NCBI GenBank assembly: GCA_964491115.1
Contig: CAZBEW010000003.1
Location: 23,026-87,025 of the forward strand
Direction: 5' to 3'
DNA length: 64,000 nucleotides
Origin: an uncultured Pseudomonadales bacterium
GTDB lineage: Bacteria; Patescibacteriota; Microgenomatia; UBA1400; PJMF01
Every line of letters starts with the position of its first letter. The stretch's first letter is position 1. Positions 29,475 to 63,281 of this stretch are shown piece by piece. The notes beneath the pieces are model-generated. The model was not told where the DNA came from. It did not search any database and saw nothing but the letters and a program-made list of their open reading frames with translations. The translations under genes were made by a program, and so were the position numbers.

Positions 29475-29492
29475 CGTTAAAAAGCAAAAAAT

Positions 29493-29852: not shown

Positions 29853-29857
29853 ATTTT

Positions 29858-29903: not shown

Positions 29904-29916
29904 AAAAGGAGAAATT

Positions 29917-30321: not shown

Positions 30322-30331
30322 ATAAATCACT

Positions 30332-30378: not shown

Positions 30379-30390
30379 ATAATTAATATC

Positions 30391-42953: not shown

Positions 42954-42959
42954 TTTTTA

Positions 42960-43280
42960 TTTTAGTATTGTTTATTCATATTGTAACTGATGATTATGTT
43001 TAATATTTATTAAATTTTTAAAAAGTAATAGTAGTAGTAGGGCATGTGGTAAAGTGAAAAATAGCAAAATAAACAAAAAAAACAACGATTGTTTGCGATT
43101 ATTTAATAATAAGATTTGTGGATAAGTATAATATTCTTTGTGAATATTTTATTAAAAATAACTTAATTTATGTAGAAAACTTTTAAAGAAATTAACATTA
43201 TGGGTGAAGTTATTCACAATTATTCACAATGTATTCAGAAGATTTCCACAAAATCGAAAATTTATGTGGAAAAGAGAATA
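42960..43280. promoter_or_regulatory. Candidate oriC: AT-rich unwinding region plus DnaA boxes
   Basis: Perfect TTATCCACA (complement strand) at 43117-43125; two TTATTCACA boxes 10 bp apart at 43210-43218 and 43220-43228; TTTTCCACA-like at 43242-43250 and 43265-43273; AT-rich 42960-43100; additional TTATACACA at 44925-44933 upstream of dnaA. Confidence 0.55.
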
Positions 43281-43341
43281 GGTGTTAAGTGCTTTTTTCT
43301 AAAAAAGCCTTAATCATCAGTTTTTTAATGTGCTTGCTTTC

Positions 43342-44963: not shown

Positions 44964-47216
44964 TTATTCTGAGCCTTTGTAGTCGTCAATAGAGTAGCCG
45001 TATAGCTGTCTGGTTTTTGGTTGAGCTTCTTGTTCAAGCTCTTGAGTGTTGTCAAAATTATTGTTTAAATCGCTGTTTTGGCTACTTGCTGTCTCGTTTT
45101 GAATGTTTGTTTCTTCGTTTTGTCCACTCGCCACCTCATTTTCAGCAACTGTTTGTTGTTTTTGTTCAGCATCAAAAATATTTTTGATTTGCGGTAGAGT
45201 GTTGCTTTGACGTAATCTGATTTCTGCTTGACGCTCGGCATTTTCTAGTAAATCAGTCTCTATTTTAACCTTTTCTCCTTGCCAGGGAATTTTTTCAGGT
45301 CTGCTAAATTCTCCAACTTTTTCCTCGCTTTTCTCAATCGTGCTTTCTTGTTCTAGTCGACGACGTCTAAGCTCACGCTCTGCCTCAGCCTGTTTCTTTT
45401 TGGCTAAAATTTCTTCAGGATCTGTTGTGATTGCTCTATCTTCTTTTTCTGACGCAATAACTCGTAGTGCCACGTGATTTTGGCCAGCAAAAAAGATGCC
45501 TTCGCCAACATCTGAAGTCACCAACAGCTGTCTTTCTCCCTCAGACAAATAAAAAGTTTGCGCTAAAAGAGGAATCGAGGAGGTTGATTGCTTCATTAGA
45601 AACTGAATAGAAGAGTTAGAAACGATTGCTCGCCCATAATCGTTGCGCAAAAAGTCTTCAACGTCTTGAGTAATGGTGGTAATACCAAGGAAATATTTAC
45701 GAGCGCGTTTAACCATCGAATATACAAAAGCAGAGCTATCTTGATGCATCATGAAGTACCAGGCTTCATCAATCACTAAAATTCGTTTTTTAAGATCTTT
45801 TTTCACTTTTGTCCAAATGAAATCAAGAATCACGTACATGGCAATTGGTCGCATTTCTTCTTCCATTTCTCTGACGCTAAAAACAGTGAAGGGGGAGCGA
45901 ATGTCAATGTTTGAAGCTTTATCAAAAATTCCCCGAAAAGACCCCGTAATAAATTTTTCTAAACGTGCTGACAAATCATCGCTTTCATCTTGTTCCATGC
46001 CGACTAAGGCCTTGTATAGGTCTTCCATTAGGGGTGGAGTATTAGTTTGAGTGTTGGGATCGGGAGTAATGCCCTTGGCTTTATAGCTGGCAATGATTGC
46101 TCGATCAAGAATTGCTTCTTGTTGAGGAGTCATTTCTCCCAACATCACTTTTAGCAGACCATGCAAGGACAAAATCTTTTGACCAAGCTCATTTTCTCCC
46201 TCTTCGTACAAATTAGATAGGTCAAATGGATTAATTTTTGCCTTAGAACCAAAAGTAAAATTAATATATTCTCCGCCAACCATATTACATAGCTCTTCAT
46301 ATTCATGTTCTGGATCTAGCACGATAATTTCCGTGTCAAACATGAGCTGGCGCAAAATTTCTAGTTTTACTGTGTAGGATTTTCCTGCACCAGATTTAGC
46401 AAAAATAACCATGTTGGCATTTTCCATTTTAAAACGATCAAAAATTACCAAAGAATCGTTGTGTTCGTTGATGCCATAAACAATGCCAGTTTCCATGGTT
46501 AATTCTGAGGAAGTAAAGGGAAAGGTTGTGGCTAACGAAGTGGTGTCCATGTTTCTAGTGATTAACAGGCGATCGGTGCCCATTGGCAAGGTGTTTTTGA
46601 AGCCCTCATCCATTTGTAAAGCGGTTTTTTTTGAAACAATTAATAAAGAGCCTAAAGAAGATTGAATGGCTTTGGTGATTTTGTCTAATTGCTCTCTAGT
46701 TTCGCTTTTAATAGTGACGTATAAGCTAAATTGGAAAAATCTTTCCGAGCCAGCCGCCAGTTGCTCTCGCATGACTCGCGCGTCATTTAATTTAATTTCA
46801 GTGTTAATATTACTAATTTTACCGTTGCGGAGATCTGAGGTTATTTCTGCCTCCATTTCAGTGATTTTTCTTTTCAAATCATCTAAAATTTTGCTGGTGT
46901 CAGACGGAAAAACAAACATCGAAATATTAGCTTGAGTGGGAAAATTAATTAGCGGTGACAACCAGTTGGCTGGGACAGTACGCGGATAACCAGCCACAAA
47001 AATAGTTCTTGTATATGTTGAATTAATTTTTTGATAGGTGAAATCCACCTCTATTGCTTCTGGGGCAATAATATCTTGAATAGTCACTAGACCACGAGAA
47101 AAATCTTTCAATCTTTCTTGAGTATATTGCTCTGCATCAATCTTTTTTTTCTCAACAGGATCAGTGACTGTTTCTTTCTTTTTAAAAAATGGTAGGTTTA
47201 GGTTTAGTAATGACAT
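44964..47216 (-). CDS. VirB4/TrbE/CagE-family T4SS ATPase with a 130-aa acidic/Gln-rich C-terminal tail
   Basis: Walker A 'AKSGAGKSYTVK', Walker B 'ILVIDEAWYF'; N-terminal 'GYPRTVPANWLSPL' VirB4 N-domain. Confidence 0.8.
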   Translation of the reverse strand: MSLLNLNLPFFKKKETVTDPVEKKKIDAEQYTQERLKDFSRGLVTIQDIIAPEAIEVDFTYQKINSTYTRTIFVAGYPRTVPANWLSPLINFPTQANISMFVFPSDTSKILDDLKRKITEMEAEITSDLRNGKISNINTEIKLNDARVMREQLAAGSERFFQFSLYVTIKSETREQLDKITKAIQSSLGSLLIVSKKTALQMDEGFKNTLPMGTDRLLITRNMDTTSLATTFPFTSSELTMETGIVYGINEHNDSLVIFDRFKMENANMVIFAKSGAGKSYTVKLEILRQLMFDTEIIVLDPEHEYEELCNMVGGEYINFTFGSKAKINPFDLSNLYEEGENELGQKILSLHGLLKVMLGEMTPQQEAILDRAIIASYKAKGITPDPNTQTNTPPLMEDLYKALVGMEQDESDDLSARLEKFITGSFRGIFDKASNIDIRSPFTVFSVREMEEEMRPIAMYVILDFIWTKVKKDLKKRILVIDEAWYFMMHQDSSAFVYSMVKRARKYFLGITTITQDVEDFLRNDYGRAIVSNSSIQFLMKQSTSSIPLLAQTFYLSEGERQLLVTSDVGEGIFFAGQNHVALRVIASEKEDRAITTDPEEILAKKKQAEAERELRRRRLEQESTIEKSEEKVGEFSRPEKIPWQGEKVKIETDLLENAERQAEIRLRQSNTLPQIKNIFDAEQKQQTVAENEVASGQNEETNIQNETASSQNSDLNNNFDNTQELEQEAQPKTRQLYGYSIDDYKGSE

Positions 47217-48329
47217 TTAAAGTTCTACAGGTGCAGGTGAGTTATTTGCTTTCTTGCTAATTGTTGTTGGGTTGGGGTTTGCTTCTTCTCCATAATCGAG
47301 GTGTTTCTGAACGGCAGGTGCCTGTCCTGTATCTCGAATCATGGGATTTTGCTGATTAATTTGTGTTTGAAGTGAGGGAATTTCTTCTCTAAAGCTAGAG
47401 GAGGAGCTTGTTTGCCAATGGGGGGCTACCGGACTTGTTGGTCTAGTGGCGGGAGCAATTTCCTCTTGCTTGGGTCTTGGCACTGGCGACTCAACTTTTT
47501 CTTGTCTGCGCTCTGATGCTGGCGCTTTGATTTCTTCTTGGTCAGGCGCTGTAGTTGCTGTTGTCGCATCGTCATCTCTTAACGCCCCACTTTCTGTATA
47601 GAGTGTTTGGCGGAAATTCTGGCGTATTCGTTGTGGATCTTGTTCTTCAGCAAGGCTGGCTCTCACGATTGGTGTAGTGTAACTGTCGCTATTAGCCACC
47701 TCCTGACCCTCCGTGGACTCTGGATTGTAATTGACGTAAAAATTTTGAATGATTTCTTGAGTGTCTAGTTGTCTGGCAAATAAGCCCACTCGGTTGAATT
47801 GGGCAATGAGATGATCTCTTCTTGGATCGAGAATAGCGCTAGCTTTTTCAACTAAAACGGTTTTTTCGTGGTTGTTAATATCAAACTTGGTTTTACCGGG
47901 TAAGACACTTTCTGCGGTGTATAAACCCATTTCAGCTGCGTTAGTAGGTACAACAACAAAAAACTTTTTTTCTAAAACATTGCGCTCGTAGATTAAGTTG
48001 GCTACAAATTCTCTATATTCAGCAATTAATTGAGACTTAGCTCTTGATTTACTTTCCTTAATTTGATTGTCTAACAATCTTAAATAGCGACTAGCATCCT
48101 TGACGTTCGACTGAATATTAATTTGAATTGGAAAATTTAAAGAATTAAGCAACGCTCCATAAGTGTACATGATGGCGTCTTGTTCTTGTTCCGCCAAGAG
48201 ACTAAAGTTCATGGTGCCAATTTGCATAATTATTGACACCACGCCATCTTTAAGAATCACCATATCATTGGTGATGTCATAAACATCTAGAAATTCCTGC
48301 GTGGTAGAGTTGATACTGTTGTCACTCAT
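47217..48329 (-). CDS. Hypothetical T4SS-associated protein (globular N-domain plus Pro/Thr/Glu-rich tail); abuts the VirB4 start
   Basis: Position only; no recognisable motif. Confidence 0.35.
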   Translation of the reverse strand: MSDNSINSTTQEFLDVYDITNDMVILKDGVVSIIMQIGTMNFSLLAEQEQDAIMYTYGALLNSLNFPIQINIQSNVKDASRYLRLLDNQIKESKSRAKSQLIAEYREFVANLIYERNVLEKKFFVVVPTNAAEMGLYTAESVLPGKTKFDINNHEKTVLVEKASAILDPRRDHLIAQFNRVGLFARQLDTQEIIQNFYVNYNPESTEGQEVANSDSYTTPIVRASLAEEQDPQRIRQNFRQTLYTESGALRDDDATTATTAPDQEEIKAPASERRQEKVESPVPRPKQEEIAPATRPTSPVAPHWQTSSSSSFREEIPSLQTQINQQNPMIRDTGQAPAVQKHLDYGEEANPNPTTISKKANNSPAPVEL

Positions 48330-48380
48330 AAAGCTATTTCAGTTTACTAGATTTTAAGTGCTAATAAAAGAGCTTTGTCC

Positions 48381-49397
48381 CTAATTAGCAATAATTTTAA
48401 TTTCTGGTACTATCCTTCCGGTTAATCTAATAGAGATGGGGTCAAAGTTTAAATCCTTTGCTTCGGTTTTAATGAGGTATTCGCCGTTAGGAAGGGCAGT
48501 TTTAATGGCAAATTCACCCTCAATGTTGCTTTTGCTAATGCGTAAAGCCTGGTCGTCATTGCTGGCAAAAACTTCAATTAAGGCATTGCTTACTGGCTCG
48601 TTTTCTTGATTAAAAACAAGACCAAACAGTTGGTTTGCTAACATGCTCTCTCTTTCCGACTGCTTTTCTTCATCAGCTTGATCTTCTTTGTTGGTATTTT
48701 TTAGAGGGTAGTTTTCTTGGACCTTTTTTGCCTCGGTTTTTTCCTGTATTTCTTGTTTAGCTGGCAATGGATCGCTTTCTTGGGCGTATTGTACTTGTTG
48801 TTGTTCCTGAATTTGCTCAAGGCTTTTAATTTTTCTCACTCTTGTTTTTAAATGAGGTTTGTCCACCCTAATATCTTTTTGAACAGAAATATTTTCTGCC
48901 TTAATTTCTACTTGACTAAAATTGGCCAGCAAATCTTCTGCTCTTTGATTGTAATGTAAATCCCATTGGTCAAGATCTTCGTTGGCACTAGGAACGCTTT
49001 TTAGATATTCTTGAACGCGCTGTTTTCTAGCTGGCGAGTAATTTACCTCTGGAGTAATATCTAAATTTTGATTTTGATCCGCTTGGTAGTTAAAAAAATC
49101 GGGGACCTTGGGTGCTTTTTTCCAAAAAAATTTAGTTGGTTTCCATATGTTTTTGAAAAAAGTTACGATCCAAAAATCTAAGGGTCTTTCTTCAACCGGA
49201 ACAAAAGCAATCATGACAGCCAAAATGATAATAAAAATAAACAGTGGCCACTTTACTATGGCAATTAAGTTACTTTTGAAAACAATAAAAGCAATGATAG
49301 CGCCAGCAGCCAATTCGCCAAACTGCTTTAGAGTCATGCTGCCGATTAGGTGAAACTTGTAGCCAGTTATATCTTGGGGAATAGAGTGTTGTATCAT
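48381..49397 (-). CDS. PrgI/VirB3-like two-TM protein fused to a C-terminal carboxypeptidase-regulatory-like beta-sandwich domain
   Basis: N-terminal 'SIPQDITGYKFHLIGSMTLKQFGELAAGAIIAFIVF ... PLDFWIVTFFKNIWKP' matches the PrgI-family pattern; C-terminal 'NALIEVFASNDDQALRISKSNIEGEFAIKTALPNGEYLIKTEAKDLNFDP'. Confidence 0.45.
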   Translation of the reverse strand: MIQHSIPQDITGYKFHLIGSMTLKQFGELAAGAIIAFIVFKSNLIAIVKWPLFIFIIILAVMIAFVPVEERPLDFWIVTFFKNIWKPTKFFWKKAPKVPDFFNYQADQNQNLDITPEVNYSPARKQRVQEYLKSVPSANEDLDQWDLHYNQRAEDLLANFSQVEIKAENISVQKDIRVDKPHLKTRVRKIKSLEQIQEQQQVQYAQESDPLPAKQEIQEKTEAKKVQENYPLKNTNKEDQADEEKQSERESMLANQLFGLVFNQENEPVSNALIEVFASNDDQALRISKSNIEGEFAIKTALPNGEYLIKTEAKDLNFDPISIRLTGRIVPEIKIIAN

Positions 49398-49822
49398 AGG
49401 GACAGCTTATTTGACTGATATTCAAAGCGACTACTGTCGATATCGCCAAATCCTTTTTCATTTAACCATATTTCGAGCGCTTTTTCTGTAGCATTTAGAC
49501 CCATGTCCGATTTGACAACAAAACCGCCGGTTTTATAAGAAAATTCGATGGTGAAATTTGACGTGCTTACTGGAGTGATGTTTTTTAATTCTGTGATCTG
49601 ACGATGTTGCTCGGTAACTTCTTCACTAAAATCTGGCTGGTCTGTGGGATAACCATGATCATGAATGTTTTTAATTTTTTCGAACTCTGGAGTGGGCGAC
49701 GCTTGTTGTGGCACGTTTCCTTCCTGACCACCTTGCTGAGTTACTCTTTGCAATACTATTATGGCAATTAGAATAAGTATTAATAAGATGATAATAAGCA
49801 GGGTTTTTTTCTTTTTTTTCAT
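49394..49822 (-). CDS. Small N-terminally anchored protein
   Basis: 'LLIIILLILILIAIIVL' TM; overlaps neighbouring genes by 4 nt (operon). Confidence 0.35.
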   Translation of the reverse strand: MKKKKKTLLIIILLILILIAIIVLQRVTQQGGQEGNVPQQASPTPEFEKIKNIHDHGYPTDQPDFSEEVTEQHRQITELKNITPVSTSNFTIEFSYKTGGFVVKSDMGLNATEKALEIWLNEKGFGDIDSSRFEYQSNKLSL

Positions 49823-49826
49823 ATTT

Positions 49827-52800: not shown

Positions 52801-53153
52801 ACATCACTGGCAAATATATTGTTTTCTAAGATTTCGTTTTCTTGTTTTTTTAATTTGTCAATTTCTTTTTCTTTTTCTTCTGGAGGAAGCGATTGATCTT
52901 GACCAACTCTAGCTATAAGAGCGAGATACTTTTCAACCTCATCACTTTTTATTAATTTAAAAGTTTTCCCAGCAAAACCCCGGACTGAAAAGGGCAGATT
53001 AAAACTCTTCTTAAATTGTTGGGGCAAATCTTGATCAAAAAAATCAGCACAAAAGGTAATAATTTCTTTTAATTCCGCTAGCTCAAGACTATCTTGACTA
53101 GCAAGCTCTTTTAGAGGAATTAAAAACCTATCGCTATTAGTTCGATCCGCCAT
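49827..53153 (-). CDS. 1108-aa membrane protein: about 780-aa N-domain, TM/Gly-Ala-rich segment, C-terminal papain-fold C39-like cysteine peptidase domain (candidate T4SS cell-wall hydrolase, VirB1/PrgK analogue)
   Basis: 'ACGPTSIAMILNE' (catalytic Cys context of Peptidase_C39_2) and 'GHYYVIVCVETPGTVTAYDPWWG' (His/Asp); 'LLKLILAATVAAFGALIALTIKAL' TM; poly-Gly 'TDGGGGGGE'. Confidence 0.5.
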   Translation of the reverse strand: MADRTNSDRFLIPLKELASQDSLELAELKEIITFCADFFDQDLPQQFKKSFNLPFSVRGFAGKTFKLIKSDEVEKYLALIARVGQDQSLPPEEKEKEIDKLKKQENEILENNIFASDVLAFLEQSTLPLSKYLKQNNKQTLAKLGNDYFRRIGLASKISTDQIALSELKKLEDSSDYWQKISNEIGQTLLDIIAEEEKVEDKEPEKEPDQEESKAPATAPGLLSKSTETQAEDESDTGGAEEDHQQRLPENFSKEFNLARLDDNSKLYIRSLAIVSVNQALIFQFANLTKEQLMNMGFEQIPNFNQLSLESRQQLLGITFSKIESLLIGGQYNLEKLISTPSMRISFSKEVALKVMTDIRGGEIFARELGRLTQSGQDPLELKKQLIANEEQKFRQKLLDAKFSVNGENVPEDLKEQLEELSTEEAEAFFAAIDEKKDLNQDFLANIGASFTRVTKNNFLGEWTKIIANDKSAVDKAFLVEDNILPVIDVFIQQNYPVEYIENLNWTRFQAHFGRDIIGENTFVANERVIKDLLTCYWKTQRAEWSHNIHQGIDNEIYTPEDLEQIWDEFDSVEPSKFDSKDKARKNLSKKDKQILQKQNIYFQQIKHQASYNLIDAEVVSKKIAGFSQDQIDFSRFSSEEIDNLNKLTTVYRQSFLDVINDSGPQAQIVTLHYYLPGEKYTTGNMVLQANTLTQFSPYDLGAINYNQAFGDYENNEYPLYRSLNDEGGIENSLQDGFTAVKNIGNKAMDFVGQKAVRAGLNYATAGAFESLPEPIKQMIEQEAWGRIRKIVEPLLKLILAATVAAFGALIALTIKALNFFGLGGGAKGAGAVSTQNSLFSQATNASASIINSLLGRGKGVAASAPDTLGAEAQGPISVRAKALSAGGLSSATALGKGVMATAGQAVITAFGLVAGGTLFYQTTINSAFLTHFPTDGGGGGGETVYCNGTNVGNLTYYDQKSMSHIRICGGCWFGDVACGPTSIAMILNEDPEQMSIREGYLGCGKTTCAGSYLSDLIDTLNSNGVTATWVATPTGSPTEITNEISNYLAQGNLLLAHTDTKGFGHYYVIVCVETPGTVTAYDPWWGKNVVHQVGSETVFKNLVLIVN

Positions 53154-53223
53154 GACTTTATTATAGACAGAAATTTAATGCGTGACTAGGCAAAAAAATT
53201 GAAAAATAGTATAATAACTAATT

Positions 53224-55815
53224 ATGAGCGCAAATCCAAATATTGTTGGAGGCTTTTCTCCAGAGCGGGGCTTTTTTAACCAAGCGGACACTGGGATGGG
53301 TGGTGGTGCAGGTAGTGGCAAGGATGATGAGCCAGTTGCTAAAAATCCTGATCAAGAGTCCGGTCAGGAACCCACTGATAAAAAACCAGATATTGCGAGT
53401 CAATTAAGCGTTAATTTAGGCCAAATTGAATCTTTCATTCGTGGCAAGGAGCCTAAGCCTGGTCAGGCTAGAGATTTGGTGAAAGAATCTCTGAAACTAA
53501 TAGAGGACTACGAACCAAGCTCTGAGGATGAAAAGGCCGACATACTTTTCTTTATTGATAAGTTAATATTGAGGGCAAAAGCTCTTTACCCACCCGAATT
53601 GAAGACAGAAGCTATTAACCTTAAATCAAAATTAGAAGTTTCTTACTATGGTGAAGAAAGTATAAAGAAATCAAATGTGAGTTCAGCAAAACAAGATAAG
53701 CTGAGTCCTTCTAAAATTAAAGAAAGCGATTCTGAAGGTGATGAACAAAGTGAAGATGATCGAATTGAAGACCTTACTCAGTTACTGATGAATTTTGATG
53801 ACGAGTTAAAAATTCTAGAAGACCAGTCTTTTGTTTTTGCAGATGATCGAGATTGGGTGAGCGAATCTTTTGAAGAGATAAATGGCCATCTTGCCACATT
53901 GAAAGGATCAAATAATGTTGATAAGGAAGTAATAAAAACTAAAGAGATTTTGTTGTTGCAACTTGAGTATAAAAAAAGAAGAGAGGCGATGTTTAAAACA
54001 CTCACCGAAATGGAAGGGAGTCAGTCGTTAACTGAAGGTTTTTTTGCTAGAGCTATTGAGGGTCCGGGTTTGACTAGAATGAATAATATTGTGTCTAGAT
54101 TAAAACTGTTAGCGGGTGGGGCAGAAAACATAAAGTATCAAGAAGATTTAGAAAAAATCAACAAGCATTATTTGGCAAGGAAGTGGTTGCTTCTTACTTG
54201 GTTGTATGTTAATCCTAAGATATATGAGGGTTCGGGTGCAGAGGGAGCAAGAACCTCTTTTGGACAAGTTGGTGACAATCAATTTCCAATTAAGGGTAAA
54301 GACTTCCAGGAACTTATACTTGGCGGATTAGATTTTAACCCTGAGTTTGGAGGTTTGTTGAATCAGAAACTAGGTGTTGAGTCAGTTCAGCTTGGCGAAA
54401 ATGAAAAGAAAGATATCGAGGTAACTTTATTTACCTTTTGTATGCGGGAGTTTGATAGAATCTACAAAGATAAAGATGGGACGGGTAGTACTGATCCTGA
54501 AGATAAAAATAAAACTATTACTAAAATTACAACGCAAAACTTAAGAGAAAATAACGGCCCCCTAATTGATTATGTTTGGAAAAAGGCAAAACAATATAAG
54601 AAAGAACACGATGGCGATTTTGCTAATCAGACTGGAGTTGAAATAGACAAACATGCGGTTGACATGGCTTTTAGAACTCATTTAATTTTAACCATGCATC
54701 ATTGTCGTTATGCTAGTGGGAGTCCTAGTTTGAGAGATGATTGGTACTATGCCTTTAATTGGCCTAAATATGTTCTTAGTTATCGTGAAAAAGGAGTTGA
54801 TAAATTTGATTGGTTGGTTACGATGTTGCAGTTTGGACTCAGGCCTGGTTTTAATGGTGATCAAGTGTCTGATAAAAATCTTCTTGCTCTGTTATTTGAT
54901 GCTTCTGCGGTTCGAAAAGCTAAAAGAAAACTAGAAGCTAGAGGGATGTTAAATGAAGGAGACAGGGGTTTGAGGTCATTAAGGGGCTTAATAAATGGAT
55001 ATGCAATTAGCTTGCCAGATGTATCTCCTCAAGTAACTCAAGCGACTGAAGATGCTCCAGACTCCGATAAAAAACCAGATAAACAGCCAGAGTACTCGTT
55101 TCTCGCACCCCCACTTAGGTATCTAAGGCAAAAAGGCGAAGACGGAAAGTTTGTTACTCATCCTGCTCCTGAAGGATCAAATGGATTGCATGTTTTTTTG
55201 GATGAAATTAGAGATGAAAAAGGTGATTTGCTCTATGAGGAATTTAATTATGAACAACTGGGCAATGATTTAATGGATTATTACAACAATATGAATGCGC
55301 ACGGTATTGATAATTTTTTAAACAAATTTATAAAAACAGAGCGTTTTGAATTTATGGAAAACGCCACAAGTCCTAAGGTTTTAAAAAATTGGAAGAATGA
55401 GGCTAGATATTGCGCAACACTTCTGCCTAGGGTTGGAAAGTTTGCGCTAATGAATATGAAAGACTCTGGAGATCCAGTAAAACTAAACCCTAGTAGGTAT
55501 CCTACTGAAGAATCTAAAAAAGGAGCGCGGAAATCAAGTGTTGCTGAAGCGGTTATGGATAGAATTTTATACCAAATTGTTTTTATCAATTGTATGCTTC
55601 GTACCGATTATACTGTTGATGATAAATATTTTTGGTCAGACGTTGAGGTGAGAAAGTATTTATCCGATCTTAGTAGTGAACAAATTTTAACCACTCAAGA
55701 AGCTGATGCAATTTATGAAGTGGTTATTGCTTATCGCGGTCAAGTAAAAATATTTGTTGAGGGAGTTAGAAAAGAAACAGCCAAACAGATTGTGCACTCA
55801 AACCTTTTTAAGTAA
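53224..55815 (+). CDS. Hypothetical 863-aa soluble acidic protein, opposite strand inside the T4SS-like locus
   Basis: ORF only; N-terminal Gly-rich 'GMGGGAGSGKDDEP'. Confidence 0.35.
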   Translation: MSANPNIVGGFSPERGFFNQADTGMGGGAGSGKDDEPVAKNPDQESGQEPTDKKPDIASQLSVNLGQIESFIRGKEPKPGQARDLVKESLKLIEDYEPSSEDEKADILFFIDKLILRAKALYPPELKTEAINLKSKLEVSYYGEESIKKSNVSSAKQDKLSPSKIKESDSEGDEQSEDDRIEDLTQLLMNFDDELKILEDQSFVFADDRDWVSESFEEINGHLATLKGSNNVDKEVIKTKEILLLQLEYKKRREAMFKTLTEMEGSQSLTEGFFARAIEGPGLTRMNNIVSRLKLLAGGAENIKYQEDLEKINKHYLARKWLLLTWLYVNPKIYEGSGAEGARTSFGQVGDNQFPIKGKDFQELILGGLDFNPEFGGLLNQKLGVESVQLGENEKKDIEVTLFTFCMREFDRIYKDKDGTGSTDPEDKNKTITKITTQNLRENNGPLIDYVWKKAKQYKKEHDGDFANQTGVEIDKHAVDMAFRTHLILTMHHCRYASGSPSLRDDWYYAFNWPKYVLSYREKGVDKFDWLVTMLQFGLRPGFNGDQVSDKNLLALLFDASAVRKAKRKLEARGMLNEGDRGLRSLRGLINGYAISLPDVSPQVTQATEDAPDSDKKPDKQPEYSFLAPPLRYLRQKGEDGKFVTHPAPEGSNGLHVFLDEIRDEKGDLLYEEFNYEQLGNDLMDYYNNMNAHGIDNFLNKFIKTERFEFMENATSPKVLKNWKNEARYCATLLPRVGKFALMNMKDSGDPVKLNPSRYPTEESKKGARKSSVAEAVMDRILYQIVFINCMLRTDYTVDDKYFWSDVEVRKYLSDLSSEQILTTQEADAIYEVVIAYRGQVKIFVEGVRKETAKQIVHSNLFK

Positions 55816-55849
55816 TTTAAAGTGTCAGGTTTTTTTGGATATTTGTGTT

Positions 55850-55975
55850 GCGCTAATTTATTCGCCTACTACTTGATCTGCTACCTCTTTCGCTTCTGCA
55901 GTTTCTGGTATGGAACTAGGCAAACCCTGTTCACCTGTTTCTGGCTTTGTGCTTAATGAGTCACTTATTGCACTT
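55850..55975. repeat. Direct repeat copy A (about 88 percent identical to 56138-56263)
   Basis: 'gcgctaatttattcgcctactacttgatctgctacctctttc...gcagtttctggtatggaactaggca' present at both positions. Confidence 0.8.
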
Positions 55976-56106
55976 GCTGCAGCACTCGTACTTTGGTTGT
56001 CTTTACGTATTTCTTTTTGTCTTTGACTGTCTTGAAGAGCACCAATAAGTTTTATATTTAAAGAGTCGCTTAATTGACCTAAAAAAATATCTTTAATTTT
56101 TGTCAT
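55858..56106 (-). CDS. 82-aa protein whose C-terminal 38 aa duplicate the C-terminus of the downstream VirB6-like protein
   Basis: 'SDSLSTKPETGEQGLPSSIPETAEAKEVADQVVGE' vs 'RDALSTSPEANEQVMPSSIPETAGGKEVADQVVGE'; about 125-nt direct repeat. Confidence 0.35.
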   Translation of the reverse strand: MTKIKDIFLGQLSDSLNIKLIGALQDSQRQKEIRKDNQSTSAAASAISDSLSTKPETGEQGLPSSIPETAEAKEVADQVVGE

Positions 56107-56137
56107 ATCAAAACAATTTTCTGTATAAAATTAACCA

Positions 56138-56263
56138 GCGCTAATTTATTCGCCTACTACTTGATCTGCTACCTCTTTCCCTCCTGCAGTTTCTGGTATG
56201 GAACTAGGCATAACCTGTTCATTTGCTTCTGGACTTGTGCTCAATGCGTCTCTTATCGCTTCT
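56138..56263. repeat. Direct repeat copy B (3' end of the VirB6-like gene and its stop-proximal flank)
   Basis: See copy A. Confidence 0.8.
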
Positions 56264-57885
56264 TCTGCAGCACCTCCTCTTTGACTTGCTTGAGCTATTT
56301 CTTTAGCCTTTTTACGAGTTGCATATGCTTCTGTTGCTCTTGTGCTTAGTCCTTGTTGAGCCTGTTGAATACCCGTGTTAATAGTGCCTGTTACTAATTT
56401 GGGAACGTTAGCAATTACGGTTGGAGCTGCAACACCAAAAGCTCCACCCTTAATTGCTCCTTCACCAGCTGCTTTTAATCTATCTTGAAAAGACGCTCCT
56501 TCACCAGCTCTAGCAAAACCTACACCAGCTCCTGCCAAGCCACCAAGAGCCCCTGTTCCTGCCGACACTCCTGCTCCCACCATGAATTTACCTCCTTTAT
56601 TCCAACCTTCTTGCAACTGCTTCATTGCCGCTCCAGCTAAATTGCCCATGATTCCCTCTGATAGTCCCAACATTTTCTTTACCTCTTTCATAATTTCTGG
56701 AATTATTAGTAATATGCCGATACCTACTAAAACTGGAAAAACTGCACCTTGACCAGATCCTAGTAAATAGGGTGGCATAAATCCGCCCGATGAGCCACCT
56801 TCATAATAAGTAGAACTGGTTAACATTCTATTAACTAAAAGACATATTAGAATTATGGGCCACATAATTAAATTACCAGTCAAATTTTTTAACCAAGATA
56901 CAAAGGTGTTTTGGCCAGGAATAGCGCCAACCATTAAAATTACTGGAGCAAAGACTACTTGTAAAATAATTGAGACATATGATTTTAATAGCTCTAAAAA
57001 GATTTTAAAAACACTAAATAAGATTGCTAATCCTACAATCATTGATGCTGACAATGAAGAAAATAAGACTAAGGCATCTGCAACAAAACCTTCTCCTAAC
57101 AAGTTTTCCATCAAAGCTGTCACAGCTTGCCTAACGTCAGGCCCAAAGCTCCTAAACATGCTTCCCACTAAAGTAAAAATACTACCTGAAATTAAGTCTT
57201 GTTGACCATCAAACAGTGAAGTTAATAAGTATAACAAAAGATACATTATATCAATCATAAATCCGGCAATGGCATAGGAAAAGGTAACTGCTAATAGGGC
57301 AACAATGATGTTGGGAATGGCCTGTTGCACGGTAATGGCTACTTGGCCAATTTTAGCTCGAAACATAATCATAAAGCCAATCACTAAAAAAATGACCACA
57401 AAAAACAGATAAGCTATATTACGAAACTGCTTCCAGGTTTCAAGGATTGGATCTAATGAGGCAAAACCTAGGCCTTGTGCTTGTGCTTCTGGAATAATTT
57501 TAGCGTTTTGTAGTAAATCAGCTAAGTAAACTTGAGAATTAATGGGAGAATCATACATGGCCACAATACTACTATTAACTGTGCCAATTAGCCCTGAACC
57601 AACACTTTGTTGCAACATGGCGCTTTCGCTAGATTCACTCTCTGTAGTGCCGAGAACATGAAGATTAATCACGTTCATTAAGTTTGAAGTTGTTTCTGTA
57701 ACGTGTTTTTCTCCACTTACACCTTCTTGAGTAATGCTAGTCTGCATGTTTTCACTAGCTTCTTTTGAGCGAAATTGAGCTCTAATCCAATCCCAGACGT
57801 TGGCTTGAGCGGGTTTAACAGCCACTGACCACGCCATTAGAAAGGTTAAAGCAAAGACTAACAAACGAGAAGCAGATTTTCTCAT
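56146..57885 (-). CDS. VirB6/TrbL-like polytopic membrane protein with signal peptide and Gly-rich C-terminal region
   Basis: Signal peptide 'LLVFALTFLMAWSVAVKPAQA'; at least 6 TM; Gly-rich 'GAGVSAGTGALGGLAGAGVGFARAGEG' as in TrbL. Confidence 0.45.
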   Translation of the reverse strand: MRKSASRLLVFALTFLMAWSVAVKPAQANVWDWIRAQFRSKEASENMQTSITQEGVSGEKHVTETTSNLMNVINLHVLGTTESESSESAMLQQSVGSGLIGTVNSSIVAMYDSPINSQVYLADLLQNAKIIPEAQAQGLGFASLDPILETWKQFRNIAYLFFVVIFLVIGFMIMFRAKIGQVAITVQQAIPNIIVALLAVTFSYAIAGFMIDIMYLLLYLLTSLFDGQQDLISGSIFTLVGSMFRSFGPDVRQAVTALMENLLGEGFVADALVLFSSLSASMIVGLAILFSVFKIFLELLKSYVSIILQVVFAPVILMVGAIPGQNTFVSWLKNLTGNLIMWPIILICLLVNRMLTSSTYYEGGSSGGFMPPYLLGSGQGAVFPVLVGIGILLIIPEIMKEVKKMLGLSEGIMGNLAGAAMKQLQEGWNKGGKFMVGAGVSAGTGALGGLAGAGVGFARAGEGASFQDRLKAAGEGAIKGGAFGVAAPTVIANVPKLVTGTINTGIQQAQQGLSTRATEAYATRKKAKEIAQASQRGGAAEEAIRDALSTSPEANEQVMPSSIPETAGGKEVADQVVGE

Positions 57886-57983
57886 ACTAGGTATATTCTA
57901 ATTGATAATTGTGTTTTGTGTAAAGTGAAGTTTATTATTTTAACTCTTGACAAGATATCGCAAAGTATTTAAAACTATCACAA

Positions 57984-58871
57984 GTGATCGATCAAAACCA
58001 AACAACGCGTCTACTTGAGTTTTTAGCTCTTAGTCCAAAGATTTTTTTATTATTTTCAAGCAGTCAACAGCTAGATATTTTTTTAACGACGCTTGCTTGT
58101 TATTTGTTTTTTCAAGACGTGGCTAATCTTAATCTCGAGCAGTATCCCTTAAAGGAGCCGTTGCTTTTTGGGCCAAAGAAAATTAAGCAAACACTCAATA
58201 GATATGCAGAATTATCCAATTATTTAGAAAGCCAAAAAATATTGTCTATTTGTCAACATGATTTGGGCAGAGAGAATTTATTAATCACTTTTCCTTATCA
58301 GCCGGAGCAAGTTGATCAAGTTTCTTCTCAAATTGGGGACAATGGTCAACGCTTTTATTTGAATATTAAACCTAAAAAAGGTCATTTGCCATTAAATTAT
58401 GAAGACGTTGAGTTTAGTTATGTTGGTGCGAGTGCTGATTTGCTGATTTTATTTGGAATTGATGATTTGTCAGATTTAAAAGATCTTTATTTCAAAAACA
58501 AAGAGCTTTATCAAAACACTCCTTTAATCAGTGTAAATAATTTTTTGCCAGATTTTGGCACGCTCAATTTAGATATCAGTGGAAGTAGTTGCTATGGAGA
58601 AGCGGTTTTTTATTTAATTAAAAATGTGGCTAGTTTAATGAACATCGAGCTAAATTCTCTAGAGAGTATTAAACAATTAGCCGCCTTATTGCTTGCAAGT
58701 ATTAGCTTAAAAACAAACAATTTTAGTCATCCAAAAATGACAACTAACAGTTTTTTGGCAGTGGCAGAACTTTTACAACTAGGGGCTCAGCGCTTAAATT
58801 TAGAACCATCGGCAAAAGCAGTAAAAGCCAAAAAAACAAAAAATACTAAAACAGAAGATCAGCTGGCTTAA
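57984..58871 (+). CDS. Hypothetical 295-aa protein (opposite strand within locus)
   Basis: ORF only. Confidence 0.35.
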   Translation: MIDQNQTTRLLEFLALSPKIFLLFSSSQQLDIFLTTLACYLFFQDVANLNLEQYPLKEPLLFGPKKIKQTLNRYAELSNYLESQKILSICQHDLGRENLLITFPYQPEQVDQVSSQIGDNGQRFYLNIKPKKGHLPLNYEDVEFSYVGASADLLILFGIDDLSDLKDLYFKNKELYQNTPLISVNNFLPDFGTLNLDISGSSCYGEAVFYLIKNVASLMNIELNSLESIKQLAALLLASISLKTNNFSHPKMTTNSFLAVAELLQLGAQRLNLEPSAKAVKAKKTKNTKTEDQLA

Positions 58872-58890
58872 AATTCTTAACTTAAAATTA

Positions 58891-61719
58891 TTAATGACTG
58901 TTGTGCATAATTATTGCAGTTGTTAGCACACCCAATCGTTGGAAAAGTGGATACTTAGTGGTGTTATTGTTAGTAGTGTCTGGATTACAAGCCACGCCAC
59001 CCATAAAACAATTTGTTAGAGCGCTACTTACAAATTCTGCACTTGGTGATCTGCCCATTACAGCAGTGTAACGATCTATAATATCGTTGCTGTCGCTTGC
59101 TTGAGCTGCTCGATTACAGGTAAATTCAACCGCATCCATACAAAAAATTAGATCCATTTCTTGATGTTTGTCATCGAGCCAATTGGCAGGATAAATATGA
59201 TCATCTCCCTCAAGAGAAACGGGACAATAGCCAGCTGCTCGCCAACGAGTTGGTCGCTCTTGATTTAAAAAGCTGTCAAAAGTACAGTTGCCATTACCTC
59301 CGCCATTATATCTAGCTAAACCCATTAATAATTTTTCGTAATCAAGCTGAACTTGGTCTGGAGCTACACCCTCGATGCCCATTTTTCCTTTCAAATGCTC
59401 CATGGCTGCAGTAGCATCTTCCAAGAGGGTGCCACGTAAAGCACCGCCATCAAAAACTGATTGATTTGGATTCATGCCGCCTTCAATCCAGTGCACCCCA
59501 GCTACTATTTCACAAGGAATACCAGTATCAGCTTCAACTTGACCATATACTGACACTAGTTCTTCTGTAACTCTTGAAGAGACATAAGTTTCAAAATTGC
59601 TTTTAGCAACTTCTGGAATACCAGAAAATTCTGGCAAACCCTCAATTTTTTCAAATGCTAAACCCTCACAGGTGGCTTCTAACTCTCCTGGCATTCGCCC
59701 TCGACAGCGACCTAAAAATAAGTCCTCAACGCGTTCACAAGAAGCAATATATTTGTATGCTTCTTCGGTGGTGCTACGAATTGTGGTCTGAATTTTTCTA
59801 ATGAACCAGCCTAAACCAAAATCGGGGAAGAGAATGGGGTTTTCTGGTTTACCTGCCACAGTTACTCCAAATGTTTTTTCATCACAAATCTCAATGTAGA
59901 TGGGATTTCCTAATGGATCAACTGCGCCACTTGGATCTGGTTCTAGGCGACAATTAGTTTTCCAAGTATAGGCATCACTACTACTATAATTAACATTGCT
60001 ATTTTTTATGGTGTAATATTTTGGTATCGCTCCAGTTTTTCCCTCCATATCAACTACAACATTGTTTTTAACCAGCTCAAACAAAGTATCACGATTCCAA
60101 AAAATACTAAAAGCCTTGTTAACATCTTTTACATTTTCTCCCATTGGTAAAACGAGATAAGCGCGCACTTTGATTTTGTCATCATTATTCAAACTCAATC
60201 CAGGACTACTAACTGTAATATTCCAAGAGAAATTTGTTTCGGTCTTGCTTTCTAATCGATCTAATAATTTAGTATTCAGTGGGTTATTTTTATAAGGATT
60301 ACGGGCAGTGTCATCAAAATATTTAATTGCTGGAGTAAAAAGATCACCCGCTTTCTCAAAAGTAAGATCATTGGTGTTGATGATATCTTCAATGTGTAAA
60401 TCACTGTCCGGATCGTCTAATTCGACCACGCCAATTGCCTCAACATCACAAGAGGGCTCGGCGCCATTAATAATGTCAACTAAAACATTTTCAAGAACGT
60501 TATCCTGTGAGCGCTGACATTGAGGCATGCCAGCACATTTAATTGTTTTTTCATTTTCTGACCAAGAATTAGCTTCGATTGCAGCTTCGGCCAAGGATTC
60601 TCTTGCTAAGTTTTGATCAGCAAAATCTTGGACATTCAGGTCGTGACTTTGTAAAACAGCTTTGGTTAATTCTAGGCTATCAACATTGTCCAAAGTTCGA
60701 GATTTATTGGTGGCAAATTCGGGAATTTTAAAAGCAATGAAAATTGGAGCATCTTTATCGTGGATGCCGCCATTAGTTTGCAAAAATTGCAGCTGACCAT
60801 CGCTTGACGATTGTCTTGGAACTAAAACTAGGAAAGCCAAGCGATAAAGGTTGTCTAAATCGAAGTTAACTTTTTCAATAGCTGCTCGGCTAAGGGCTAG
60901 TGTTTCAGCATCAGCTGAGCTGGTAGTAGCGCCTTCTGGATATAAATCACCACAAATAGTCGAATTTTTTTCAGTTCTTTCTTCCTTAGATCCACTGCTC
61001 AATTCTGGACGGAGATCGTCTAAGCGTTTTTTAATGTTTAAATAGTCAAGATTGGCAGTAGGAATATTTAGTGCTGGATTGCCCTCAATTTTAACTTCTC
61101 TGTTTAAGAAACAATTAATAAAAAATTTACTGCACAATTCTTCAATCACGTCCAAATTGTTTTTCTTATAAAAACACTGCCAATAAGAACTTAATAATCT
61201 GCCAGCTACGCCGGTGGCATTTTCATAATCAAGTGCAGTAAAAGTTTTTTGTAAATTTGCGCCAAACATTCCCTCAAATGAATCATTTTTATCGGTTAAT
61301 TCGCCATCTTCCATCCCTCTTAAAAGAGGAATGCGCGCCTTGTCAAAATCTACATATTGAGGGCTGGTGCCACTAAAAAGTCTGGGTGAGTCGGGAAATT
61401 CAGCAAAATAATCGACAACATCTCCCCAAACACTGGCATCAATTAACCACTCTTTTTGAGCGCAATGAGCTTCATAACCCTGGTCTAAAACCATATTCGA
61501 TAAAAGATCGTCATGAGCACTACTAGCCATGCCTGGATTAAGCACCAGTGGTAATATGTTGTAGGTAGCGGGATCTCTTTTTTCAGGATTAAGATCAAAG
61601 GTTCCAGATGCAGTTGACTCTTGGGCAAAAACAGTAAAATTTGGCTTAGTAAATAAGTTTAACAATAAAAAAAACGTAAACAACAATTTGACAGCTTTTA
61701 GCACAACTTTATTATACAA
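58891..61719 (-). CDS. 942-aa secreted cysteine-rich protein; C-terminal region possibly lysozyme-like
   Basis: Signal peptide 'LLFTFFLLLNLFTKPNFTVFA'; more than 25 Cys; 'HWIEGGMNPNQSVFDGGALRGTLLED ... GLARYNGGGNG' weakly resembles the SLT/lysozyme E...AYNAG pattern. Confidence 0.4.
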   Translation of the reverse strand: MYNKVVLKAVKLLFTFFLLLNLFTKPNFTVFAQESTASGTFDLNPEKRDPATYNILPLVLNPGMASSAHDDLLSNMVLDQGYEAHCAQKEWLIDASVWGDVVDYFAEFPDSPRLFSGTSPQYVDFDKARIPLLRGMEDGELTDKNDSFEGMFGANLQKTFTALDYENATGVAGRLLSSYWQCFYKKNNLDVIEELCSKFFINCFLNREVKIEGNPALNIPTANLDYLNIKKRLDDLRPELSSGSKEERTEKNSTICGDLYPEGATTSSADAETLALSRAAIEKVNFDLDNLYRLAFLVLVPRQSSSDGQLQFLQTNGGIHDKDAPIFIAFKIPEFATNKSRTLDNVDSLELTKAVLQSHDLNVQDFADQNLARESLAEAAIEANSWSENEKTIKCAGMPQCQRSQDNVLENVLVDIINGAEPSCDVEAIGVVELDDPDSDLHIEDIINTNDLTFEKAGDLFTPAIKYFDDTARNPYKNNPLNTKLLDRLESKTETNFSWNITVSSPGLSLNNDDKIKVRAYLVLPMGENVKDVNKAFSIFWNRDTLFELVKNNVVVDMEGKTGAIPKYYTIKNSNVNYSSSDAYTWKTNCRLEPDPSGAVDPLGNPIYIEICDEKTFGVTVAGKPENPILFPDFGLGWFIRKIQTTIRSTTEEAYKYIASCERVEDLFLGRCRGRMPGELEATCEGLAFEKIEGLPEFSGIPEVAKSNFETYVSSRVTEELVSVYGQVEADTGIPCEIVAGVHWIEGGMNPNQSVFDGGALRGTLLEDATAAMEHLKGKMGIEGVAPDQVQLDYEKLLMGLARYNGGGNGNCTFDSFLNQERPTRWRAAGYCPVSLEGDDHIYPANWLDDKHQEMDLIFCMDAVEFTCNRAAQASDSNDIIDRYTAVMGRSPSAEFVSSALTNCFMGGVACNPDTTNNNTTKYPLFQRLGVLTTAIIMHNSH

Positions 61720-61748
61720 GAACTAGAAACGAAGAACTAGCTTCTTTC

Positions 61749-62330
61749 TTAAACTCCTAAAATTGCTATTCCAAAAACTACTTCGATTAATTGGATTATC
61801 CAGTAAGAAGCAAAAAGAATGATAAATCCGATAATAGCTGTAGTAATGATTTGTTTGCCTTCATCCATATTTTTGGAATTAGTAGCACCAGTGAGCATTT
61901 TAACACCAGCTAAAACTAACATGCCAAATAGAATCATCCCAGCTATAGGGAAAGCATATTTCAAAACTTCGCTAATAATTCCGCCTGGAGTTGATAATTT
62001 TTCAGCTTTAGTCGAAAAAAGTTTAAGTGGGTTGAGGTTGTCTAATAGCTCTTGATCTACTGGAGGAATGGGTACGGCTAGAGTGGGAGTAGCTGTTGGA
62101 GCAGCTGTTGGTGGTGGAGAAGCATGGCACCCCGTTGTAGAATCGTACCAGCCGCAACACCATATAGGAGGATTCCAACCAACGTGGACTTTATTTGCAC
62201 AATTACATGCACCATAGGCAAAATATTCTCCGCATTCAGCTGGATCAAGTAGTCCACCTTTTACTGGTTTGGCTGGAAAGGCAAATATTAGAGAAAAAGC
62301 AATTAATAAATAAAGGATTGTTTTTTTCAT
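61749..62330 (-). CDS. Pilin-fusion protein: signal peptide, 8-Cys ectodomain, Pro/Thr/Ala linker, C-terminal VirB2-like two-TM pilin module
   Basis: 'CGEYFAYGACNCANKVHVGWNPPIWCCGWYDSTTGCH'; 'PPPTAAPTATPTLAVP'; C-terminal 'GMILFGMLVLAGVKMLTGATNSKNMDEGKQIITTAIIGFIILFASYWII'. Confidence 0.5.
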   Translation of the reverse strand: MKKTILYLLIAFSLIFAFPAKPVKGGLLDPAECGEYFAYGACNCANKVHVGWNPPIWCCGWYDSTTGCHASPPPTAAPTATPTLAVPIPPVDQELLDNLNPLKLFSTKAEKLSTPGGIISEVLKYAFPIAGMILFGMLVLAGVKMLTGATNSKNMDEGKQIITTAIIGFIILFASYWIIQLIEVVFGIAILGV

Positions 62331-62333
62331 TTC

Positions 62334-63281
62334 TTATGGTTGTCCAAAACCAGGTATTTTAATAACTGAAACGCCAATAAATTGCAATATGGTCACAGAG
62401 AAAATGATAAATAAGAGTCCTACAATGGCTGAGGTAATGATCTCTTTTGCATCTTGAGTTTTTTTAGGGTCACCTTTAGAGGTAGAAAGCATAAAGGCGC
62501 CAACTAAAATCATAACTAAAACAATGCCTCCACCTAGTATAAGACCGATTCTCATTATTGTATAAATAATGCCTTCAGAACTGCTTGGTATACAGCCAAT
62601 TGCTGTCCAAATTCCTCCCGAATTAAAGCAGGTTATACAACGACTAAAAGCATTGGTGTTGCTGGAACTAATTTGTGTCAAGCAAAGATCAAATTCAGTG
62701 CCTTCAGCATCTGTTGGCTCTGAACTACAACTATTAGGATTACAGCTATTGGACACTATGAAAGGGGCGCTTTGTTTTATATCACATAATATACTTTGGT
62801 TATAAATAATCTTGCGATAAGATACGCCAACAAGATATCTTCCCTCTTCTTCATCGATCATTAGGGAAGCGGAAGCCGTATTATTTATAATATCTGCTGT
62901 CGCTTCCGAGGAAGTCGCAACAGCCCTATCACCAACCATTTTCCTTAGTGTAAACCTAACTTTTTCTGGAATTATTGAGCTATCATTTTTAGGATCGTTC
63001 CAAGTGAGATTCTCAATTGTAATATTTACGTCTGAGCCAGATTGAATGCAACTTGGGGGGTAGTAACATTTTTTTCCATCTCTTTCTTGATAAATTTGGA
63101 AACCTGATGCTGTAAAAGTTGCATCTAAGACTGATGGAGGATTAAGACCACCAGTAAACCACAAACACTGTCCTGGTACAAAGTCATCAGCAAAAACCGA
63201 AAATTGGCTCTTTTGAAATTTTGTAACAAGTGAGGTTAATAGTAGGAGTGATAACAATATTCTCAATATTTTATTTTTCAC
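62334..63281 (-). CDS. Pilin-fusion protein: signal peptide, about 230-aa Cys-containing ectodomain, C-terminal VirB2-like pilin module
   Basis: C-terminal 'IGLILGGGIVLVMILVGAFMLSTSKGDPKKTQDAKEIITSAIVGLLFIIFSVTIL' has the same architecture as the 27.6-30.8 kb paralogs. Confidence 0.5.
   Translation of the reverse strand: MKNKILRILLSLLLLTSLVTKFQKSQFSVFADDFVPGQCLWFTGGLNPPSVLDATFTASGFQIYQERDGKKCYYPPSCIQSGSDVNITIENLTWNDPKNDSSIIPEKVRFTLRKMVGDRAVATSSEATADIINNTASASLMIDEEEGRYLVGVSYRKIIYNQSILCDIKQSAPFIVSNSCNPNSCSSEPTDAEGTEFDLCLTQISSSNTNAFSRCITCFNSGGIWTAIGCIPSSSEGIIYTIMRIGLILGGGIVLVMILVGAFMLSTSKGDPKKTQDAKEIITSAIVGLLFIIFSVTILQFIGVSVIKIPGFGQP

Follow-up and report, generated by a model that had tools for sequence, protein, structure and literature searches.

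A probable Microgenomates/Pacebacteria form of the Patescibacteria chromosomal type IV secretion system, encoded beside dnaA

The DNA analysed here, a 64-kb stretch of contig CAZBEW010000003.1 (hereafter, the window), carries at positions 44964–63281 a type IV secretion system (T4SS) gene cluster that ends beside dnaA. Twelve open reading frames (ORFs) lie within these limits, and all of those listed in a first-pass annotation of the same DNA were recovered in place. That annotation had described an entirely minus-strand gene set, which proved incorrect: ten of the ORFs are on the minus strand, whereas the genes for an 863-aa protein (53224–55815) and a 295-aa protein (57984–58871) are on the plus strand and thereby divide the locus into three minus-strand units. 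The first comprises two pilin genes followed by p942, the second a virB6-like gene with an 82-aa ORF, and the third P1108, p142, prgI, trsD and virB4, in that order. The dnaA gene (43342–44859, minus strand) follows virB4 by 104 bp in the same orientation, and beyond it lie dnaN, rnpA, rpmH, yidC, jag and an RNase H gene, in that order. For comparison we used the 80 best VirB4 loci, one genome per species, with VirB4 proteins 69–97% identical to that of the window; nearly all are Patescibacteria metagenome-assembled genomes (MAGs) labelled Pacebacteria, Woesebacteria or Microgenomates, and a few carry other NCBI labels.

The 750-aa product of virB4 (44964–47216, minus strand) had been called a VirB4-family ATPase, and profile searches bear this out: it matches NF045971, the NCBIfam model for the CD1110 family, with an E-value of 1.7e-113 and 380 bits against a cutoff of 325, and PF19044 with an E-value of 1.4e-25. 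Walker A (GAGKS) and Walker B (LVIDEAW) motifs are present, and the tail past approximately residue 600 is of low complexity and rich in E, Q and K. These matches assign the protein to the monoderm CD1110, or MPF-FATA, type of VirB4. An exact-sequence look-up returned no record of it, and its scores against the DNA-import ATPase models NF041017 (53.6 bits, cutoff 700) and NF053655 (24.1 bits, cutoff 600) place it outside the CedB and CedD families. The alignment to NF045971 covers profile positions 170–733 of 752, and the usual N-terminal domain is missing. The adjoining gene (47217–48329, minus strand) encodes a 370-aa protein in which residues 1 to ~205 resemble the N-terminus of VirB4 and are followed by a disordered tail rich in P, Q, S and T. 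It matches the TrsD/TraD model NF041427 (E = 2.3e-7) and, over profile positions 100–279 in the N-terminal third, the mycoplasma VirB4 model VirB4_plasma (E = 1.7e-5), both below cutoff; an orthologue in one relative has a precomputed match to the TraC-like family PF26593. Its profile found nothing significant among PDB sequences, and an hhalign comparison of the family with PrgJ of pCF10 was negative, though with a single-sequence template this was a weak test. These sub-threshold scores, and a position adjacent to VirB4 in 59 of 61 loci, suggest that the TrsD-like protein is a detached N-terminal part of VirB4, supplying what the 750-aa protein lacks.

Upstream of trsD lies the gene for a 338-aa membrane protein (48381–49397, minus strand) that scores 28.3 bits against the PrgI model PF12666, just over the gathering cutoff of 27, so that its earlier description as a PrgI/VirB3-like protein stands. 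The β-sandwich to which it was said to be fused is less firmly placed: the end of its long C-terminal extension matches CarboxypepD_reg weakly and below cutoff (E = 0.0013), and is a probable β-sandwich. The next gene (49394–49822, minus strand) encodes a bitopic membrane protein of 142 aa with a transmembrane helix at residues 7–25. In relatives this slot holds proteins of ~200 or ~330 aa, and none of 43 slot proteins has a Pfam match; comparing the 142-aa family by hhalign with the slot families of the ~200- and ~330-aa proteins (f12 and f16) gave probabilities of only 31–40%. The 142-aa protein itself has a very weak match to NCBIfam TrsH (E = 0.04, far under the curated cutoff), and it may plausibly be a VirB8/TrsH analogue.

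The largest protein of the cluster, the 1108-aa P1108 (49827–53153, minus strand), is identified as a core component by its position in relatives and is distinguished by a variable C-terminal module. It consists of a cytoplasmic N-terminal region of ~790 aa, a single strong transmembrane helix at residues 795–813, a Gly-rich linker and an extracytoplasmic C-terminal domain in which, on inspection of the sequence, most of its Cys residues are found. In related loci, 63 ORFs occupy the same position; their N-terminal 700–1200 residues are poorly conserved and are followed by one strong transmembrane helix. Among 51 members of the family, no Pfam domain was found in the N-terminal parts in any meaningful number, while the C-terminal module is M23 in 34, NAGPA in five and CHAP in one, with a weak C39_2 match in the clade of the window. 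In all six close orthologues, Peptidase_C39_2 (PF13529) is the first match but is sub-threshold, the best score being 19.5 bits against a gathering cutoff of 24. Residues Q52, C71 (in ACGP), H158 (GFGHYY) and D175 (YDPW) are invariant in the alignment of these orthologues and, by motif analogy, would be the catalytic residues. The profile of the domain found nothing significant among PDB sequences, nor did tblastn find a match in phages. The first-pass description of a membrane protein carrying a C39-like peptidase is thus upheld as regards the helix and the Q/C/H/D residues but not by the family score, and we regard the domain as a putative papain-like (C39-like) cysteine peptidase. Because peptidoglycan-hydrolase modules swap on a constant membrane-anchored scaffold, we infer that P1108 is a wall hydrolase dedicated to the T4SS.

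The 579-aa product of the virB6-like gene (56146–57885, minus strand) is a polytopic membrane protein whose N-terminus is signal-like and whose C-terminal tail is rich in Gly and Ala. No family match was found for it or among the 120 listed of its 729 homologues. An AlphaFold2 model built from 57 sequences is all-helical, with a predicted local distance difference test (pLDDT) score of 70–89 across the membrane core and a mean of 65, and its predicted fold is that of VirB6, which supports at moderate confidence the original call of a VirB6/TrbL-like channel protein. Together with the PrgI/VirB3-like protein, this would provide both expected membrane components. An hhalign comparison of the family with PrgH of pCF10 was negative (again a weak test against a single-sequence template), and in clades further removed, the genes ahead of P1108 (families f15 and f18) have no relation to the 579-aa protein detectable by hhalign. 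The accompanying 82-aa ORF (55858–56106, minus strand) lies in a direct repeat of 167 nt and 83% identity (55850–56016 and 56138–56304), has a C-terminus nearly identical to that of the VirB6-like protein and was found only in the closest relative. From the repeat, it arose by partial tandem duplication of the virB6-like gene at its 3′ end and is probably not an independent component.

Between the virB6-like and pilin genes on the minus strand lies p942 (58891–61719), whose product, as first described, is a secreted Cys-rich protein, with a hydrophobic, signal-peptide-like N-terminus and 20 Cys residues. It is 942 aa long if a TTG start is used; database copies begin five codons later and have 937 aa. 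None of its 56 full-length homologues has a Pfam domain, although many cysteines are invariant, and p942 itself gave no Pfam or PDB sequence-profile match even when the C-terminal domain was isolated. In the AlphaFold2 model, this domain (residues ~680–942) has pLDDT values above 90, against a mean of 70 for the whole protein, and adopts a predicted lysozyme/lytic-transglycosylase-like fold in which E746 (HWIEGG), a nearly invariant residue, is a candidate catalytic residue. From this fold follows a predicted VirB1-like activity, which would make p942 a VirB1 analogue. The N-terminal ~680 aa match no known fold.

The two remaining minus-strand genes encode the pilin-fusion proteins recognised in the first-pass annotation, and both exceed the gathering cutoff (26.6 bits) of the T4SS_pilin model PF18895. 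The 193-aa protein (61749–62330) consists of a signal peptide, a small domain with six Cys residues, a Pro/Thr linker and the pilin domain (residues 114–180, 38.9 bits), with transmembrane helices at 125–143 and 161–179; the 315-aa protein (62334–63281) has a signal peptide, a ~200-aa domain with ten Cys residues and the pilin domain (residues 236–302, 29.1 bits), and its orthologues are conserved across the full length. Both are VirB2-like. The first-pass annotation had proposed checking the other side of the window for VirD4 and VirB11; neither was found there, but a feature it had overlooked was, namely seven tandem genes for small VirB2-like pilins of 119–151 aa (27648–30801, plus strand). 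Six of the seven score above the PF18895 gathering cutoff (30.5–42.4 bits), and the seventh (28133–28573) has the same architecture, which brings the VirB2-like pilin genes to nine, eight by score and one by architecture. The array belongs functionally to the same T4SS and lies across the origin from the main cluster, so that T4SS genes occur on both flanks of the origin. Divergently transcribed from it is a gene for an ECF-type (extracytoplasmic function) sigma factor (27052–27612, minus strand; Sigma70_r2, E = 1.1e-11; Sigma70_r4_2, E = 3.5e-9), by adjacency only a candidate regulator of the array.

The two plus-strand genes are of a different kind. The 863-aa protein has no predicted transmembrane helix or signal peptide and no Pfam, NCBIfam, PHROG or PDB match. 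Its homologues are few (10 by word index, and 35 representatives among 1.84 billion proteins), which points to a very narrow, fast-evolving family. In four sister species, the gene in the same slot shares with it only the first ~110–130 aa, at 27–43% identity, and the remainder is unrelated, whereas in those species VirB4 is 83% identical, the VirB6-like protein up to 69% and the flanking T4SS genes 54–83%. In more distant relatives, a reverse-strand gene of 748–1203 aa occupies the slot, and we therefore refer to the 863-aa ORF as the slot gene. Scans of the 863-aa protein and of eight longer homologues revealed no toxin or enzyme domain. A GSGKD string resembling a Walker A motif was dismissed, since the S/T residue is missing and the surrounding sequence is Gly-rich and of low complexity. 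The 295-aa protein, also soluble and likewise without Pfam, NCBIfam, PHROG or PDB matches, keeps its position in relatives at 39–57% identity. Both of these conserved reverse-strand genes are candidates for a role in regulation or as cargo. A PHROGs scan of eight cluster proteins found nothing meaningful. The 863- and 295-aa proteins stay unmatched; the 370-aa protein, which the first-pass annotation had left unnamed, is TrsD-like, and the end of p942 has a predicted lysozyme-like fold.

The genes are linked rather than scattered in related genomes, in agreement with the first-pass view of a single locus. PrgI, TrsD and VirB4 occur in this order in 59 of the 61 loci with enough upstream sequence, and VirB4 is co-oriented with dnaA in 69 of 69 related loci, the median gap being 117 nt. 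The gene order on the dnaA side is common to the 80 matches wherever it was recovered, and the downstream housekeeping genes are syntenic as well; a 1030-aa DUF4012 membrane protein (35970–39062, minus strand) is syntenic with this housekeeping block in most related loci. The far half of the cluster (pilin, pilin, p942, p295, VirB6-like, slot gene and P1108) is kept in five relatives, where p942 is 36–71% identical. The window showed neither an integrase nor a repeat boundary, and its sole tRNA gene lies 30 kb away rather than flanking the cluster. Because the order PrgI-TrsD-VirB4-dnaA recurs in about 60–70 related MAG species, the locus is, judged by gene order, chromosomal and vertically inherited and not a mobile element; a mobile-element reading was rejected on the synteny with housekeeping genes across many species.

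The spacer between dnaA and dnaN (42954–43341) is the probable origin of replication (oriC). Within 150 bp it contains one perfect DnaA box (43117) and three with one mismatch each (43210, 43220 and 43265), the GC content falls to 18–23% at 43000–43300, and the cumulative GC-skew minimum is at ~42–43 kb; with oriC in this spacer, the T4SS cluster starts ~1.6 kb from the probable origin. If the origin is indeed here, the minus-strand T4SS genes of the region 42954–63281 read toward it, head-on to the replication fork for ~16 kb, and the plus-strand 863- and 295-aa genes would be co-directional with the fork. On the right of the origin, GC skew stays flat instead of being positive. At the opposite end of the cluster, the pilin genes are bordered by a plus-strand gene (63346–64000), cut by the end of the window, whose product has a signal peptide and an N-terminal coiled coil. 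At its position relatives have a SpoIID-domain protein and then a VanW/PG_binding_4 protein, and further wall-remodelling genes thus border the cluster.

We found no VirD4 or other type IV coupling protein (T4CP), no relaxase and no VirB11 in the 64-kb window, as had been noted in the first pass; every ORF of at least 296 aa outside the locus was scanned, and the remaining ORFs are too short. All of the scanned ORFs match unrelated families except one of 437 aa (12990–14303), which has no match. Because the window has no relaxase, coupling protein or VirB11 and the cluster keeps its place beside dnaA in many species, we agree with the first-pass annotation that it is not a classical conjugation module, and it is instead probably a host-interaction conduit. 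The locus is very probably the Microgenomates/Pacebacteria form of the chromosomal T4SS of Patescibacteria, a group that also goes by the name candidate phyla radiation (CPR), descended from monoderm MPF-FATA conjugation machinery.

This assignment agrees with what has been described in other Patescibacteria. In Candidatus Southlakia epibionticum ML1, Wang et al. (2023) reported an essential T4SS (SEML1_0006–0019) next to dnaA (PMC10633639), in which a lysozyme/cysteine-proteinase protein and an essential protein of 1113 aa whose C-terminal domain is a metallopeptidase accompany VirB4, PrgI, VirB6 and six pilins (PMC10633639, Tables S1 and S2). Both loci are chromosomal, lie a few kb from dnaA/dnaN and have no relaxase or coupling protein nearby; both encode VirB4 with an adjacent protein in the TrsD position, PrgI, VirB6 and a VirB2-like pilin array, together with, by comparison of published annotation, a protein of more than 1100 aa ending in a peptidoglycan peptidase domain and a lysozyme-like hydrolase. 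The arrangement differs: the hydrolases of S. epibionticum lie downstream of virB4, but in the window P1108 lies upstream of prgI, and dnaA directly adjoins virB4. The lysozyme and cysteine-proteinase domains are also combined there in one protein (SEML1_0006), with the metallopeptidase in the large one, while here these functions are split between p942 and P1108, and S. epibionticum has an NTF2-like (VirB8-like) protein where none was demonstrated in the window. In a survey of 3,035 genomes, Quinonero-Coronel et al. (2025) found that Patescibacteria VirB4 proteins form a clade nested in MPF-FATA, that TrsD accompanies them most often, that PrgI, VirB6 and VirB2 arrays, the last especially in Microgenomatia, also occur, that relaxases are rare and that in Microgenomatia and Paceibacteria the genes are close to dnaA/dnaN (PMC12102498); a 2025 review calls these systems newcomers to the T4SS superfamily (PMC12857230). 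The present locus shares with the surveyed systems an MPF-FATA-type VirB4, TrsD, PrgI, VirB2 arrays, the lack of a relaxase in the window and the neighbours dnaA, dnaN, rnpA and rpmH. The survey, however, recovered few VirB6 proteins in Microgenomatia and seldom a VirB3 gene linked to virB4, which it ascribed to divergence, whereas a predicted VirB6-fold protein and PrgI lie within the cluster here and are conserved in relatives; nor does it single out the 942-aa lysozyme-like protein or the modular 1108-aa hydrolase family.

Conjugation systems of monoderm bacteria offer further parallels. The Prg/Pcf system of the Enterococcus plasmid pCF10, the MPF-FATA prototype, likewise has PrgI (VirB3), PrgJ (a CD1110-type VirB4), PrgH (VirB6-type) and the large wall hydrolase PrgK, there in one operon; it has in addition the T4CP PcfC, the relaxase PcfG, the adhesin PrgB and the VirB8-like PrgL, but no pilins, and its VirB4 is in one piece. 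A separate TrsD/TraD related to the VirB4 N-terminus, as proposed here, is found in the Trs/Tra systems of the staphylococcal plasmid pGO1 and of pIP501, along with a VirB8-like TrsH/TraH; those plasmids are, however, conjugative, with a relaxase and T4CP, and the TrsD and TrsH matches in the window fall far under the curated cutoffs. ComB of Helicobacter pylori and the archaeal Ced system are also T4SS-derived and without coupling protein or relaxase, and both move nucleic acid inward, a functional analogy that has been invoked for Patescibacteria (PMC11665869). Their components nevertheless differ from those here, ComB being a diderm VirB2–4/6–10 set and the CedB and CedD models giving the low scores reported above.

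A working model can be proposed from these parts. VirB4, with TrsD as its separate N-terminal domain, would form the energising unit, docking on a membrane platform of the PrgI/VirB3-like and VirB6-fold proteins and powering assembly. The p942 and P1108 hydrolases would open peptidoglycan, either the cell's own or that of the host, and the nine VirB2-like pilins would be drawn out of the membrane to polymerise as a tube reaching the host bacterium. What such a conduit might carry is a matter of analogy, and we rank contact-dependent uptake of macromolecules (nucleic acids, for example) from the host ahead of effector export, effector export ahead of a purely adhesive pilus, and conjugation last. 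Uptake is our preferred reading, though held tentatively and at somewhat less than even odds. We favour inward transfer because the T4CP-less ComB and Ced systems are importers and because a 2026 preprint on a cultivated relative describes tubular structures at the parasite-host interface and uptake of host RNA (bioRxiv 10.64898/2026.06.21.733656).

Effector export, in which proteins would be injected into the host bacterium with the hypervariable slot gene as substrate, is possible but the less likely of these two. The slot protein is soluble, is encoded within the cluster and has reverse-strand counterparts in the same slot of relatives; its ~120-aa N-terminal module followed by unrelated sequence in sister species recalls polymorphic effectors; its family is very narrow and fast-evolving, and effector delivery has been speculated upon in reviews (PMC11665869). 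Known T4SSs, however, require a coupling protein for cytoplasmic substrates and none is encoded nearby, their signals are usually C-terminal, the scans for toxin or enzyme domains described above were negative, and no immunity-like gene was seen in the neighbourhood. The slot gene might also be reconciled with inward transfer, as a polymorphic cargo or host-specificity factor of a coupling-protein-less machine that acts as a two-way or inward conduit feeding the epibiont, but we consider this combination improbable. An attachment organelle, adhering or penetrating without substrate transfer, would make sense of nine pilin genes, two of them with extra Cys-rich surface domains, and of pilin arrays that are essential in S. 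epibionticum; yet type IV pili already give these bacteria adhesion and motility (PMC11665869), and that VirB6 and a full VirB4 are retained throughout the phylum points to a functioning channel, so that a pilus-only function is unlikely. Least probable is the remnant of a conjugative element that has degenerated or integrated and whose T4SS would still export DNA with a relaxase and coupling protein supplied from elsewhere. In its favour, VirB4 belongs to the conjugative CD1110 type, TrsD and PrgI are proteins of conjugation modules, VirD4 homologues often lie at a distance from virB4 and ~100 Patescibacteria genomes carry relaxases (PMC12102498). Against it, the same order is kept beside dnaA, dnaN and yidC in about 60–70 species with a divergence that tracks that of the housekeeping neighbours, the window showed no integrase, repeat boundary or flanking tRNA, and VirB2 pilins, of which there are nine here, are not found in Gram-positive conjugative systems.

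Several points weigh against the overall explanation proposed here. The organism, an ultrasmall bacterium, is known only from metagenomes, and the function given to its cluster is a prediction from the genes. Other parts of the genome could encode a T4CP or relaxase, and many VirD4 homologues are indeed far from virB4 (PMC12102498). The TrsD, C39-like and β-sandwich assignments all rest on sub-threshold scores, while those of VirB6 and lysozyme rest on AlphaFold2 models whose overall confidence is moderate (mean pLDDT 65 and 70, respectively); a Foldseek search against the PDB gave nothing significant for p942. No VirB8 homologue was demonstrated in the cluster, the 142-aa protein reaching only an E-value of 0.04 to TrsH, and the preference for import over export is an argument from analogy only.

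Elsewhere in the window, positions 1–10000 have a GC content of 28–31%, compared with 33–40% in the remainder, and encode surface-glycan functions, among them an O-antigen ligase-like Wzy_C protein, a 1039-aa PQQ β-propeller protein and glycosyltransferases; this may be a variable surface island. The sole tRNA gene of the window (14409–14485, plus strand) specifies a tRNA-Ile with anticodon TAT (UAU), a means of reading AUA that is uncommon in bacteria. A gene for a Fic-domain protein fused to a DeoR-type helix-turn-helix (22755–24053, minus strand) adjoins one for an ATP-dependent DNA ligase (20877–22709, minus strand).

In conclusion, the type of system, its lack of conjugation genes and its proximity to dnaA were already described between 2023 and 2025 (PMC10633639, PMC12102498), and the components that the first-pass annotation called unusual are the normal complement of the T4SS of this lineage, so that their novelty was overstated. 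The gain is not a new kind of system but a syntenically validated parts list for its Microgenomates/Pacebacteria version. New here are structural grounds for recognising VirB6 in a class for which few had been reported, which fills a gap in the 2025 survey; the p942 family with its predicted lysozyme-like end, the modular P1108 hydrolase family and the apparent division of wall-hydrolase function between them; and the conserved reverse-strand pair that includes the hypervariable slot gene. The slot gene is the main open lead, and if it is indeed cargo, it would be a defined candidate substrate for a Patescibacteria T4SS, a system whose role is described in reviews as completely unknown (PMC11665869). 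The Patescibacteria T4SS is essential in the single species tested, and it may be the means by which a quarter of bacterial diversity taps its hosts.

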